Assembly: GCA_965235115.1 (NCBI GenBank)
Contig: OZ249436.1
Location: 10,480,001-10,544,000, forward strand
Length of the DNA stretch: 64,000 nucleotides
Source: Laetmonice hystrix
Lineage: Eukaryota
Direction: 5' to 3'
Part shown: positions 46,101 through 52,100 of the stretch, piece after piece
How the letters are laid out: each line of letters opens with the position of its first letter
Position numbering within the stretch: position 1 is the stretch's first letter
Position numbers and translations under genes: made by a program
The notes under the pieces: generated by a model
What the model was told of the DNA's origin: nothing
Databases searched by the model: none
The model's input: only the letters and a program-made list of their open reading frames with translations

Positions 46101-49100
46101 TGCTTCACATGAACTCTGTTTTTAAAAATATTTCTTTACGATGACCAATTGTAACTCTCGTAACTTTGATGTTATCCACGTATACTGATGGAGAATAATC
46201 TACAACCTCTCAGCTTGTTGCAGGAGATGCATTTGATATGGACGCTATGCAAGGCCAGTCGCGTGGCATGGTCATCTACATCACATCTAGAGGTCAAAAC
46301 AGGTTACAGAGATAAAACAGGTTAACAAATATTTAACTAAAGCCTTCTTATCCATATGTAGTGGTAGTCCTAAAATATTATATTTGTTAATACAGGTCAT
46401 ATCAAATTATTTGATTCTTCATTGTACTGAACTGGCATCTTTTTTATACTCAAAGTATTGATCAGATAAATGCACCAATGATAATAGAAATTTCCAAAGA
46501 ACAAGAAACTACAGATGAGTTTAACTACAGGACTTTTCACCCGTAAATTTGGAAAAACCTTGAACTATATGAGTTTGGCCTGATATGAAGTCAAATAGAT
46601 TCAAACTGTTACCAACCTGCTGAGGATGGCTTTGCGAGACACGACACAAGCCAGTGGACCCAGTACAGTTGCTACCTCCTCCAGGACAGAGTGATTCTCG
46701 TCCGACAGCACTGGACTGTTAAAATATCATGTAAATGCATTTAGGACACATCAATGCAACATGTTACTCCTAGCTTATATTAACCTATACTTTCTAAAAA
46801 TATGTCAAGTAGTCAGGTATTACAACTGCGGTACAGTAATTTTTCATGTTTAATAAATTCCTGTAATGAACATTTAATAAAACAGTTTTTCCACAGATAT
46901 AAAAGTAGATCCTTTTGGAAGCAGTAAACTCACTGAAGCACATCGTAGACGAGGTGGTTGGCATTCGGCCCACAGTGATGTAAGAGAGCGGGGAAGCTTG
47001 CAACGGCTGCTTGACGGACAGTACTCGAACTTGATCCCTAAAAGTCCACATAGGAATTTTATGAAACATATTTTGCACATTCCCAGTTCTAAACATGCAG
47101 ACCAGTGTGAATATGGGTTTAATATGCAGATAAGAACAGACCCTTGGGACCCTTTTATCTAAAAATTTCAAAGTCATTTAATGTAGAATTACTCCCAACT
47201 CGAATCATAATGTCGCTTAACTTAATTCTGTATCTTGATTCTATCATTTATACAAACTCTGAAGAAATTATGCCATGCTAATCAGAGAAAAGCCTTACAA
47301 GAGCTGCCGTTATGACATGTATCCTCCATTTTGGTGCACTTTCCTTTGGTAAAAATCCCAGGACCTGCACACCTTCTGCCAATGTTTCTGGATCTGGGAG
47401 AAATAAAACACAAGTGCTCCTACAGAACTGGTTGGTTAAAGACTAAATATTAAATCTCATCAGCAATCATGTACTAAAATCCAGACCAAACCCAGGACTA
47501 ATGATGCAGACATGTGGCAGCTTCCTTTTATTGCAGATCAAACTCTTACAGATAATCCTGTTAACTCATTTACTGCCAACGGCACCTCCATGCTGGTCTG
47601 TATATATATATTTGCTGTCATCAGCCACGTGCCCTCCCCCCTCCACCCCCATTCCACTACCACCACCACCCTGCCACGTGTGAGTGTCAGTGGATGTTTG
47701 TCACTTCAATGATACCAGGCAAACCTACAGTGGCACAGTCAGGGTCAATCACCATCAGTCCACCCAGCAACACCTCTGACATAATGATCACTGCCAACTC
47801 TGGGGTTGTCAATGACAGCTGTGTTAGGCTAGCACATTGCCTGTCACAAACGGCAAACTCCAAATCACACAGTCTCACATGGTCTTTGGGATTTGAGGGA
47901 AACTAATTGTCTCAGACTTTATACCATTATTTGAAACGAATTTTGGGAATATTATGATTATAGCCAACGGATTGACTGATTTAATGAAAGAAATAAATGC
48001 CAGATATGGAAGAATCTTGTTTGTGCTCAGTGGTCTTAAACACTGACACACATTGACAATTTATGTTTCCCAACTTTCTAAAACTTGGACTTTTCTTGTG
48101 TTGTCTATCCAAATGATCCTTCGACTAAATATTTAGAATACAGGAATAAAGAATCCATATTTATTATACTGATTATGTCAAAAAATGAGCATTCCCTGAT
48201 GATTTTCTTTTTATTTTACCTTAAAAAGCTCAAAATTCACGATTAAACTATATTAACTCAATGAGTTAAGTCATTTTTGTGCAATTAGCCATTGTTCTAG
48301 TAGAGATCCACTAGCATACTATTAAATTCAAGTACACTTATTTCACTGATGTTTAAATTAGTCTGAATCCAGAATGAATTCGTCTAGGAATGACTATGTA
48401 TGTAATCTTATTACAAAGTAGCCTAAAGCTTAACTTTTCTGATACCATCATCTTGCCTAAAGTAAAGCACTACCATAACATGTACAGTCTGCTGATGTGA
48501 TTTCACAGTTTAAAACCATTAATTAAGAGAAAGGGAGGTACAGCACTGCACATATGTCATGACAACTGGCCTCTGGCAACTTCCATTCACACCTCATCCC
48601 CAATTCACACCTCCTGCCAAAATATGGAGGCGCCAACTGTCACCAACATGTCTATCCTCAGCCTCTGAACGCCCTTGTCAATCACGTGACATAGAATCAG
48701 CCAATGAAATTGTTTCCAAAAGGAGATGACAGGGGCTGAGTTGTATTCAAACAGATTCATGGCTCACTATAAAAGTAAAAGGCTGAGCGACTCAGCCAAG
48801 CATCCCACTTGAGAGTAACTCTTGGCTTAGGAAGCACACGTTTTGTGAATCTATCAAGTATTGTGTAGTCATGGAACCCACTCTAGATGAGCAGATCCAA
48901 ATGGCTGATGGCAAGTTTAAAAAGGCTTGCAGTCAGCTGGTCCTGTTAAATAACCAGATCGACAGCCTTCAGAGGCGATATGACCGGGCGTCACGGGACG
49001 GTGCCCGGGCATCTCGTTACAACTACCGTATCAAGTTGTGTGCAGTAGAGGGAGTCAGGAACATGTTCTACGAGTATGCCATCCGTCTTGCTGACAAGAT

Positions 49101-52100
49101 CGACAACCTTAGGACTCAGGCTGGTATGATTGTCATACGAGAGGGAATCAATAATTCAGTTGAAGATACAGATGAGGTGAACGAATGGGAAGACGGCTAT
49201 CATTCCGAGGTGGATAGTGAAGTTACAAGCGACTCTCTTGGTGACGAGGATGATGAAGACTCCGGCAGTGACGATGACAGAGACTAAGACTATGATTTCT
49301 CAAGCTGACTAACTTCCCCGACAACGTTCATCTTGGCAAGGCCCCCGGATTGGTACCATTTAGTACCAACATCTCTAACCATAAGGGCCCTGTTGAGGGC
49401 CATCATATTATCCAAAAAGACTTGATCAATGCTTTTATCTTCAAAGGGAGTGAGTAGAATTTTAAATATGGTGTACATCAAACTCTAGCAATGTACAACA
49501 AATATGAAAAAAGAAAGATGACATAAAAAAGAACAAAAGAAATTGATGCATGCATAAAAAACATCTGACTAACAGAATAATATATCAAGTCATTTTCTAG
49601 CTCACCTAAATGATCAGCGAGAGCACAGGCAATTCTGCCTGCTTCCTGATTGTTCTCTGGCTTCAGATCTTGCCACAACATCTCATTCTGAAACAAAAAA
49701 AGTTTGGTTGGATCGTTAGAAAAAGAGATAAGCATGAGTAACATCACGTGATAATCAAAACTACTGGATTTCCCTTTAAAATGCAATGCTCACAAACAGC
49801 TAAATCTGAAGGAGTCAGTTTTCACTTTTACCTGATCACCTTAAAACTGGTACTTCGCCTTAGGCCAAAAAAAAAAATTCCCGGTTTCTGGTCTGAAGAA
49901 AATTTCAAAAGTGGTGCGGTGACGCAGGTTTTTTTTTTTAATTTTTTTTTTTTGGTGATAGCTGGCTAAGATGGTAAGCCTCATCAAAATTATCATGTAA
50001 AATGAACTCATAGATAAGGACCATGACCTTTGCTGTCATCGCTTTGAATACAAACACACTTCCATTGCAGTATATCAATTACAACAATGGTTAGTTTTAA
50101 GCTTTACTGCTAGGTGGCAGCACAATTCACAGTCATCCAAGGTGAGGGCAAGAAAAAAAGCACTGATGCGCGGCATCTGAAGTGATGCGCGTGCGGACCA
50201 GAAACCGGGAATTTTTTTTTTGGCCTTAACAGAAAAGATTATATTTGTTAACGAGGAATCATAGAGTACTGACTGGCATCCAGTGTAGGGACAGCAAAAA
50301 GACAAATGTCTGGTAGACACGCGATGAGTAGCAGCCAACATCTGTCAAGATTAAAAACAAGATCTAACTGTTGATCAGTCAGGGGCCCATCTTACTATGG
50401 GTGGTTAATAACCAGGGGTGCCTTTCTCAACATGTCGTTAGCTTGTCGTATCATTAACAATGTATTTTCAATGGAGATTTTGACGCACGACAGGATAACA
50501 ATGGATGAGAAACACACCCCAGATCATTAATTTAACATAGTAGTGAATGGTGGCTGTAACCAGCAGCCTTCCATTCACTCCTATTTTAATGCAACTATCT
50601 GGTAAATAACCAGCCTTAGTAAGACGGGCCCCAGAAATGGCAATAGAATGGCCACAACATACCAAAATCCATATTCTGCAGTAGTGAGGCTGGATTAATG
50701 TGATACTGATAGCGATCATATATCCTTCACTGACAAAAAATATAACAGCATTCAAAAATAAATATTATAGGTCTTGTTGATTCATGCTGCTGGATTTACA
50801 ACTACATGTACATGTAAGTGGTAATGCTACAGATTGGAAAACTACATGCATGTAGTGATGCAAAATAAGCAGAATTTACCTTTGACAGCAACAAGAGCTC
50901 CAATGCTCCTCACTATTGCCTGATAAGCGATGTTCATTGAATGTGCCCGGTCCGCAGTGTCACTGCCACTGTGGGTGCCAGCAGCTTTCTTTGTTTGTGG
51001 ATCCTTCTGTGTGGTGGCGAAGTTCTGCAGACAAGTTACCCACACCTGACACATCTCCTCCACCCACCTGCTGTGGAGCCAGGATGCCAGGAACTCCACG
51101 ACAGGTAACTTCACCGATGGCTTAACTCCTTTCATGCTAACAACAGGTAAATTACAGAAAATTACACAATTATCTGCAAGAGCTCAATTAATGCACTTGA
51201 AATATTGTGAAAATGGCTAAAAATAAAAAAAACATATCACATGTTGGGAAGCATGTTTTAAAACCACCCTGTACAACATATCAAGGAGGGTTTTTTCAGC
51301 TTTTTAGCTATAAACATCATTTTGCAGCTGGGGAATGAATCAGCAACATGGAATATTACCTGTCTGTGGGCATGTTTTGTGGAAGAGCTACCAGACACTG
51401 AGCCAGGACTTCTAACAACACTTGTATACCCTCCAGGATGGTCGCCAACTGTAACGGCAGTACATCAATTCTCATATTATCATCTATTAGGTTATTCATT
51501 CAGTCCACACAATCAATAGTTTATCAACAGAATAAGGCATGCAGCAAGATGGTTCAATCAGAAATTAAGATATTTCAAGAAATTGAAGTTTAATATTGTA
51601 CGGTTTAGAGCTCCTCTACACAACATTGTCTGCCTGAATCATGATCATTTTTTTTAAATCCCCCCAAAAGTTATGTCACTGGACTATTTATTTTTATATC
51701 AAAGGGTAGGAAACAAAACTTTTTGGGGACCTTAAATCAGGAACATCTAGATTACAAACATACCAGAATTTGATCAGGTAAAAAACTGAATGCCATTTAC
51801 CTTGTCTGGATCTTTACTAGCCAGTTCCCGACAATCATTTTCTAGTGTTGTGAGCCTTTTCAGAACATGAGTCAGCGTCACAGGTTGCCCACTTAGGTCT
51901 TCAGGATCAAAATCTTCTTGTCTGCAAATCAGCGAGCTGAGATATTTATGTTTGTTTTTATATTTTACACACAGCTGGATGATAATTTCTACACATTTCA
52001 TGATATCTCCTGCTCTGTCCTAGCTGACTGCTTAGTGATTAAATATCAATGTAGGGCTACATGGTTCTTGGATGAATTGCAATTTTTCTCACCTATAGGG

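Follow-up and report, generated by a model that had tools for sequence, protein, structure and literature searches.

The stretch of Laetmonice hystrix DNA examined here (64,000 nucleotides of contig OZ249436.1, assembly GCA_965235115.1, positions 10,480,001 to 10,544,000; hereafter the window) contains an uninterrupted open reading frame (ORF) of 138 amino acids at 48871..49287 on the plus strand, lying antisense within an intron of the checkpoint kinase gene ATR. The ORF is a divergent member of a large nameless family, and it is likely that the genes of this family are built like replication-dependent histone genes, that the nested ORF is an old divergent copy, and that its RNA follows the histone-type route. 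The basis for this at the DNA level is the family itself, selection on the protein, the recurrence of a stem-loop and a histone downstream element (HDE) among paralogues and across species, the identity of these elements with the signals of the genome's own histone genes, and their mutual exclusion with AATAAA. The most informative part of the locus, 49386-49426, lies beyond the interval 48682..49287 that a sequence-only reading of this DNA had singled out. On the plus strand, a histone-type 3' stem-loop occupies 49386..49401, with a 6-bp stem (GGCCCU/AGGGCC) and the loop GUUG, and is followed at 49415..49426, 13 nt after the stem, by a purine-rich HDE that agrees at 10 of 12 positions with the HDE of the genome's histone genes, a score that none of 5000 random 30-mers reached. 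The stem-loop is the sole plus-strand match to the descriptor in the window (0 of 100 shuffles) and forms in both the minimum free energy and the centroid fold. The fold of the whole untranslated region (UTR) is not more stable than that of shuffled sequences (z -0.31), as is to be expected with a hairpin of 16 nt.

The same 3' arrangement recurs across the family. Of 16 loci picked by protein score, 15 match the Rfam model RF00032 (Histone3), three of them above its gathering score of 34 bits, and paralogues score up to 37.4 and 40.0 bits. The best genome-wide Histone3 matches include family genes on contigs C5, C8 and C21, besides H1 arrays and an H2A. Within 450 nt downstream, a stem-loop and HDE follow 58 of 67 de-duplicated ORFs of the same genome (upstream control, 0 of 62), a share that is inflated by loci partly chosen through their stem-loop matches. 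Among the nine misses, a hairpin is still present in five, with one mismatch or with a variant element; half of the stem is gone in one more, and the last three comprise a frameshifted copy, a fragmentary one and one flanked by repeats. For other animals, 64 loci on metagenome contigs were taken without selection for their 3' ends, and 59 had enough downstream DNA; the hairpin is present in 34 and the hairpin with HDE in 32, as compared with 0 of 49 in the upstream control. No hairpin is found in the other 25 copies (about 40%), and the protein therefore does not need the stem-loop. Because the stem is nearly palindromic, a reverse-strand control gave 5 and 8 matches with a non-directional descriptor, and 1 of 59 once a directional loop rule was applied.

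The details of the hairpin are also those of histone genes. The distance from stop codon to stem-loop in the family has a median of 30 nt, the same median that the available text of a preprint gives for metazoan histone genes (bioRxiv 10.64898/2026.10.14.759114). Among 57 distinct hairpins, both sides of the stem change at four of the six pairs (34 cells; 0 of 500 shuffles), a count that is inflated since the set was chosen by a pairing descriptor. The G-C of stem pair 2 as well as the U at loop position 3 are fixed in all 57, as the descriptor required, and these two features together with a 6-bp stem and a 4-nt loop are the diagnostic criteria in the same portion of that preprint. The first loop position is U in 86 of 90 family hairpins and C in three. 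Tandem stem-loops recur in family genes and in H1 genes, with six in locus L012. At the nested copy, an extra hairpin lies at 49350-49369, 17 nt before the stem-loop, and may be a decayed first stem-loop.

Comparison with the histone genes of the same genome extends the parallel. H3, H4, H2A, H2B, H1 and an H2A ending in SQEF have a common 12-nt HDE located 13-14 nt after the stem. These histone genes score 10-12 of 12 on the element, and 21 of 26 distinct family ends score at least 10 of 12. Several family 3' ends are nearly letter-identical to H4 from the stem through the HDE, and may have arisen by capture or conversion from H4. A gene for SLBP is present, with its RNA-binding domain over the cut-off on C5. 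A search of this genome for a U7 snRNA gene with the Rfam model and three patterns returned nothing convincing, which is no evidence of absence.

The copies that do not have a hairpin point to an alternative 3' end. Among the other-animal loci with 300 nt of downstream DNA, AATAAA occurs within that distance in 21 of 24 copies without a hairpin (7.0 expected) and in 6 of 28 copies with one (8.1 expected), two loci having been relabeled as hairpin-bearing by a stricter stem rule. For this difference the Fisher p is 1.7e-6, a value that ignores kinship among the copies. In a quick tree, hairpin and AATAAA forms stand side by side in at least three clades with support of 97-99. The occurrence of both forms within the same clades suggests that the family has switched repeatedly between stem-loop and poly(A) ends, a parallel to the replication-dependent histone genes and their polyadenylated variants. 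The nested gene has no AATAAA in 49288-50400, and one ATTAAA at 50350. Its ORF is uninterrupted at the DNA level, and an intron may lie in the UTR.

The sequence-only reading had described the ORF as an orphan, which does not hold. In the 627-Mb genome (35 contigs) we found at least 150 scored matches among 512 candidates, so that the paralogue count comes to at least 150 loci on 11 contigs; 147 of 150 matches have no internal stop, and 70 lie in one 1.3-kb tandem array on C19. Many of the copies on C5 are frameshifted at their 5' end. A protein search with the single sequence gave 29 matches and a profile search 562, and cluster representatives number 664 at E<=0.001. The named relatives are annotated as hypothetical proteins in Lamellibrachia, Ridgeia, Capitella, Mya, Mytilus and Magallana, placing the family in annelids and bivalves. 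Together with the histone sequences of the genome, these homologues would fit a lophotrochozoan source, perhaps an annelid. One homologue is full length and 70% identical to the nested protein. The quick tree of 109 rows does not place the nested copy in the large expanded clade; it groups, at support of 81-93, with one paralogue and with two homologues that are 70-71% identical. One family member, P0265, is filed under the metagenome-assembled genome of a bacterial symbiont; its place in the tree is beside a bivalve protein, and the DNA probably comes from the host.

The family protein is under purifying selection, as judged from coding sequence. Of 30 pairs tried, six were saturated and one rested on a mis-anchored alignment; in all 23 measurable pairs the ratio of nonsynonymous to synonymous substitution rates (dN/dS) is below 1, and in 18 it is at most 0.3. 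Contigs of other haplotypes, from one sample, add that among the differences listed both of those in the ORF are synonymous and none falls in the stem-loop or HDE. A search for longer forms returned three matches but no informative fusion; in two of the three, the gene model seems to have been joined wrongly. In Capitella, model P0349 has the family domain fused to the end of a long unrelated protein, possibly similar to SZT2, which suggests another intronic copy. An oyster model, P0350, combines the family domain with a NADAR domain and is possibly mis-joined.

Given the high copy number, the genes could conceivably travel as cargo, of no function to the host, in a mobile element or virus that has taken over a histone end, all the more as a dispersed element with a Ulp1-type protease in the same genome also ends in a stem-loop and HDE. 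We regard this as the most improbable of the explanations considered. The 2.2-kb intron DNA around the nested copy matches only itself in a genome-wide search, so the flanks of the ORF are single-copy, and the nested copy is therefore old and no part of a repeated element. No relative is encoded in viral contigs, the array units examined contain no other recognized gene, and purifying selection is strong in a family present in two phyla. The transposon or viral insertion that the sequence-only reading had named as its own potential refutation was thus not found.

The promoter had been read correctly from the letters. On the plus strand, a CACGTG E-box (TCACGTGAC) lies at 48682..48690, a CCAAT box at 48701..48705 and a TATA box (TATAAAAG) at 48768..48775, 103 nt ahead of the ATG. 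In other-haplotype contigs from all three runs of the one sample, the TATA box has C as its first base instead of T. This ordered set of three motifs is found at a single place in the window and in 0 of 100 shuffles, a result that overstates significance as the pattern was derived from the site itself. Across the family, a TATA-like box is found in 31 of 43 promoters of the same genome (4.1 expected) and in 28 of 46 other-animal promoters (7.7 expected), whereas enrichment of CCAAT is weak (24 of 43 own-genome promoters vs 16.8 expected). The E-box, weakly enriched as well, is present in 5 of 43 own-genome promoters (2.2 expected) and 9 of 46 other-animal promoters (1.8 expected). The proposal of a real gene with a TATA-type promoter is therefore supported by TATA enrichment and purifying selection in the family, the full-length homologue, the single-copy flanks and the absence of a viral relative. 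The accompanying proposal that the gene is inducible finds no such backing: the family promoters hold no excess of cAMP response element (CRE) or AP-1 sites (6 of 43 vs 11.4 expected), and the H4 promoter of the same genome has the same CACGTGAC-CCAAT-TATA order as the nested gene.

These promoter data also bear on the idea that the stem-loop end serves fast, short-lived expression unrelated to replication, the protein being a burst-expressed stress, immune or germ-line effector whose dose comes from tandem amplification. The lineage-specific arrays with their near-identical and broken copies would suit such an effector, as would the excess of E-boxes in other-animal promoters and the oyster model with the NADAR domain, if that model is not mis-joined. 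Against it stand the lack of CRE/AP-1 enrichment, the promoter order common to H4, and a between-species dN/dS that is low and gives no indication of diversification. On balance we consider a replication-unrelated effector unlikely.

If the genes are instead expressed as their histone-like design predicts, Pol II would start at the TATA promoter and produce a short intronless RNA, SLBP would bind the stem-loop, and the small nuclear ribonucleoprotein (snRNP) of U7 would pair with the HDE. Cleavage would then take place some 5 nt beyond the stem, which in the nested copy is near 49406, and the RNA would receive no poly(A) tail. The message would be translated and subsequently destroyed on the histone schedule, which predicts expression in S phase and during cleavage divisions and rapid loss when replication stops. 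Actual cleavage in the family is very probable; S-phase timing of its expression is somewhat favored.

Metazoan replication-dependent histone genes are accordingly the closest known system. The likeness includes an ORF without intron, a TATA promoter, tandem arrays with additional dispersed copies, a 6-bp stem and 4-nt loop at a median of 30 nt after the stop codon, an HDE that is identical, in sequence and offset, to the one of the genome's histones and the absence of AATAAA, and the sister genes of the family that carry a poly(A) signal parallel the replacement variants. The family differs in that its product is not a histone, being a two-helix hairpin with an acidic tail and no Pfam or PDB match, and in that the family arrays examined lie apart from the histone clusters. 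H2A.X offers a precedent for a stem-loop gene outside the canonical five, and the SQEF-ending H2A of this genome does have a stem-loop. The H1-derived protamine-like sperm proteins of bivalves are likewise encoded by noncanonical genes with a histone stem-loop. These proteins are histones or their derivatives, unlike the family described here, which shows no relationship to histones.

Several points weigh against this reading, in addition to the two inflated counts and the hairpin-less copies given above. The nested copy is atypical, and its loop is the only one of 90 family loops to start with a purine. Its stem-loop scores 21 bits with RF00032 and does not reach the gathering score, and it lies 98 nt after the stop codon, outside the 25-60 nt that the available text of the histone preprint gives as critical for regulated stability (bioRxiv 10.64898/2026.10.14.759114). 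In the available portion of PMC4604434, a U-to-C change at loop position 1 lowers SLBP affinity in vitro, and the nested copy has G at this position; the same portion reports that single loop changes did not block the ternary complex. Synonymous sites of the nested copy are saturated against three of three paralogues, leaving its own dN/dS not measurable. Finally, nothing beyond anatomy and gene design links the protein to chromatin.

It is conceivable, therefore, that the family uses the histone pathway and the nested copy is a drifting outlier, with weak SLBP binding and with processing led by the HDE or replaced by read-through as far as some remote poly(A) site, or else with little expression. 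The unique purine, the low model score and the long spacer are what such an outlier would show, and two further features fit with it, namely the T/C polymorphism at the first base of the TATA box and a serine at residue 48, where 91% of the family is hydrophobic. Nevertheless, the 6-bp stem is perfect and retains the G-C pair at position 2 and the loop U3, the HDE is also retained and equals those of H2A and H1 in quality at the exact offset, the ORF is intact despite synonymous saturation, a full-length 70% homologue exists, and no AATAAA occurs in 1.1 kb. We thus consider drift out of the pathway improbable, and the nested copy is probably still processed, perhaps less tightly. Cleavage of its RNA seems reasonably probable, with less assurance than for the family since its loop has drifted.

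The predicted protein comprises a conserved two-helix hairpin (residues 5-83; 48883..49119, plus strand) and an acidic tail of low model confidence (49123..49284, plus strand) with 22 D/E and 2 K/R in 54 residues. In the AlphaFold model the helices span residues 5-43 and 46-83, with confidence (pLDDT) of 96-99 across residues 1-80, in agreement with the two long helices and acidic tail that had been read from the ORF, itself intact at 138 amino acids as reported. The tip of the hairpin is basic and aromatic (R36, Y37, A40, R49, Y50 and R53), with 9 K/R within residues 34-63, and these tip residues together with E60-G61-x-R63 are conserved at 90% or more in 134 sequences. The column profile also reveals conserved hydrophobic residues beside the heptad core (C20, L25, Y50, I54, C57, M65 and Y69). 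These are more than the core between two helices would need, which suggests that a second hydrophobic face is an exposed binding surface.

The judgment that no family could be recognized from the letters stands: this is a hairpin plus acidic-tail protein of no known family, and not a histone. In Pfam, the single protein gives DUF3839 at 14 bits, below the cut-off, and none of 134 family members exceeds a cut-off, scattered coiled-coil matches reaching at most three members each. A profile search of PDB returned tropomyosin/BAP31 coiled-coil noise with no match of note, Foldseek found nothing at E<=0.001 in PDB or viral structures, and the ESM Atlas returned a single nameless cluster, for the most part molluscan, whose scores of 0.82 and 0.78 do not reach the reliable range. 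VIA-align gives generic hairpins. We considered assignments to HR1, ING and ESCRT-III and adopted none of them. ESCRT-III (Snf7/CHMP4) provides the top VIA-align rows (Z 11.1 and 10.9; root-mean-square deviation 1.0-1.4 over 78-82 residues) and also has a basic hairpin followed by an acidic tail; however, these Z scores are below the chance level of about 13 for helical bundles, identity is 10-11%, the family model shows two helices alone where ESCRT-III continues with helices 3-5 and forms polymers, and no Snf7 Pfam match occurs in 134 members. The N-terminal dimerization domain of ING is a chromatin-linked hairpin and includes the top Foldseek row (ING4, E 0.24; ING3 in VIA-align, Z 10.2), but the match is not significant and the 134 members show no PHD finger and no ING Pfam match. 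Likewise, 16 longer members gave no PHD or ING Pfam match.

From this anatomy, our preferred but rather doubtful guess is that the protein acts as a chromatin-linked helper, required in large amounts together with histones. The second hydrophobic face of the hairpin would then bind a partner or another copy of itself, the basic tip would contact nucleic acid or else some acidic surface, and the tail with its acidic residues would buffer histones or shield the tip.

The placement of the gene within ATR is as the sequence-only reading described. The host intron occupies 47394..49605 on the minus strand with GT...AG ends in phase 1, as defined by the junction sequences and by frame continuity, and the 82-nt exon directly upstream of it (49606..49687, minus strand) joins in frame to the exon starting at 47393. 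The kinase-domain exon of the host matches ATR at E 3.2e-23, the next family being SMG1 at 6e-10. Two N-terminal pieces of the host, one of them the exon adjoining the intron, had no PDB match when searched singly, and the assignment of the local exons to ATR thus rests on the gene model. The ORF has a GC content of 49%, as compared with 39% in the remainder of the intron. In the neighboring ATR intron, 49860-50200 is a very high-copy repeat with a contig depth in the tens of thousands.

From this placement it had been proposed that the gene and its host are coupled by transcriptional interference, that is, that its position inside ATR is maintained because ATR is dampened by the convergent transcription of the gene, or the gene by that of ATR. 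The antisense nesting is real, and in S phase the two polymerases could run into each other within the 0.6 kb that they share. Nevertheless, we found no evidence for coupling and regard it as highly improbable: the nested copy is one of at least 150 loci, most of them in tandem arrays, and with a histone-type end near 49406 the predicted transcript would stop with some 200 nt left before the closest exon of ATR, the distance from the end of the stem-loop to the intron donor being 204 nt. The best explanation is that the ATR intron is the landing site of one dispersed family copy. Other nested antisense genes are likewise intronless and lie on the opposite strand of a host intron, but here the gene belongs to a large dispersed family and has a predicted histone-type end inside the intron. 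ATR signaling triggers the decay of stem-loop mRNAs when replication stalls, and the nested copy could therefore be an output of its host kinase. Tentatively, the family may be a conserved "sixth passenger" of the histone program in annelids and molluscs, a non-histone chromatin protein with a replication-coupled stem-loop form and a constitutive poly(A) form of its genes, between which there has been repeated switching as in histones and their variants. The SLBP/U7 route would then serve in this animal as a general mode of expression, entered also by other gene families and by a transposon, and the nested copy would be a possible output of ATR.

Papers on the pathway state that histone mRNAs are the sole mRNAs of this kind, and according to the available portion of PMC4604434, crosslinking and immunoprecipitation (CLIP) of human SLBP gave no other target. 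The term "non-histone" has no match in the main text of the metazoan histone preprint (bioRxiv 10.64898/2026.10.14.759114), and the available portions of a 2026 review (PMC13525598) and of PMC6897289 contain, respectively, no exception to histone exclusivity and nothing further on exceptions. In the literature searched, in which coverage of subscription journals is poor, neither this family nor a non-histone cellular mRNA with a histone end is described. The pathway, itself known, thus appears to have a client of a new kind in this family, a proposal that is well supported at the DNA level. If true, a conserved family in two phyla with the full signal in dozens of genes would overturn the exclusivity of histones, and it would become testable why the pathway is limited to histones and what advantage a gene draws from it. 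Clades in which stem-loop and poly(A) forms occur as pairs constitute a natural experiment on 3'-end switching. Poly(A) selection would remove such mRNAs from transcriptomes, and this may be the reason that hundreds of family members have remained nameless. The results also draw attention to a so far unstudied protein, which embryos may produce in amounts like those of histones.

Elsewhere in the genome, the combined stem-loop and HDE pattern fits 448 sites (reversed control, 0). A second, unrelated non-histone family lies on C2 (51.21 and 51.37 Mb), represented by an uninterrupted 114-amino-acid ORF (L123:99-440, minus strand) with a TATA box and a canonical stem-loop and HDE, in 11 near-identical copies in two arrays. 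This protein has no Pfam match and matches neither the hairpin family nor H2A, although visual inspection would allow for an H2A that has diverged very far. A dispersed repeat (L042-L046; C18, C1 and C2) contains a Ulp1-type protease frame (Pfam Peptidase_C48), an integrase-like stretch that we take to resemble Ginger elements, and an internal tandem repeat, and ends in a canonical stem-loop and purine-rich element. At L124 (C3:625200-625870) a stem-loop and HDE follow 600 nt with no clear ORF, and the same end is found at two more sites on C3. The H1 genes are not placed with the core-histone quartets but form separate tandem arrays on C20 and C4, and the H1 copy in locus L038 carries a premature stop.

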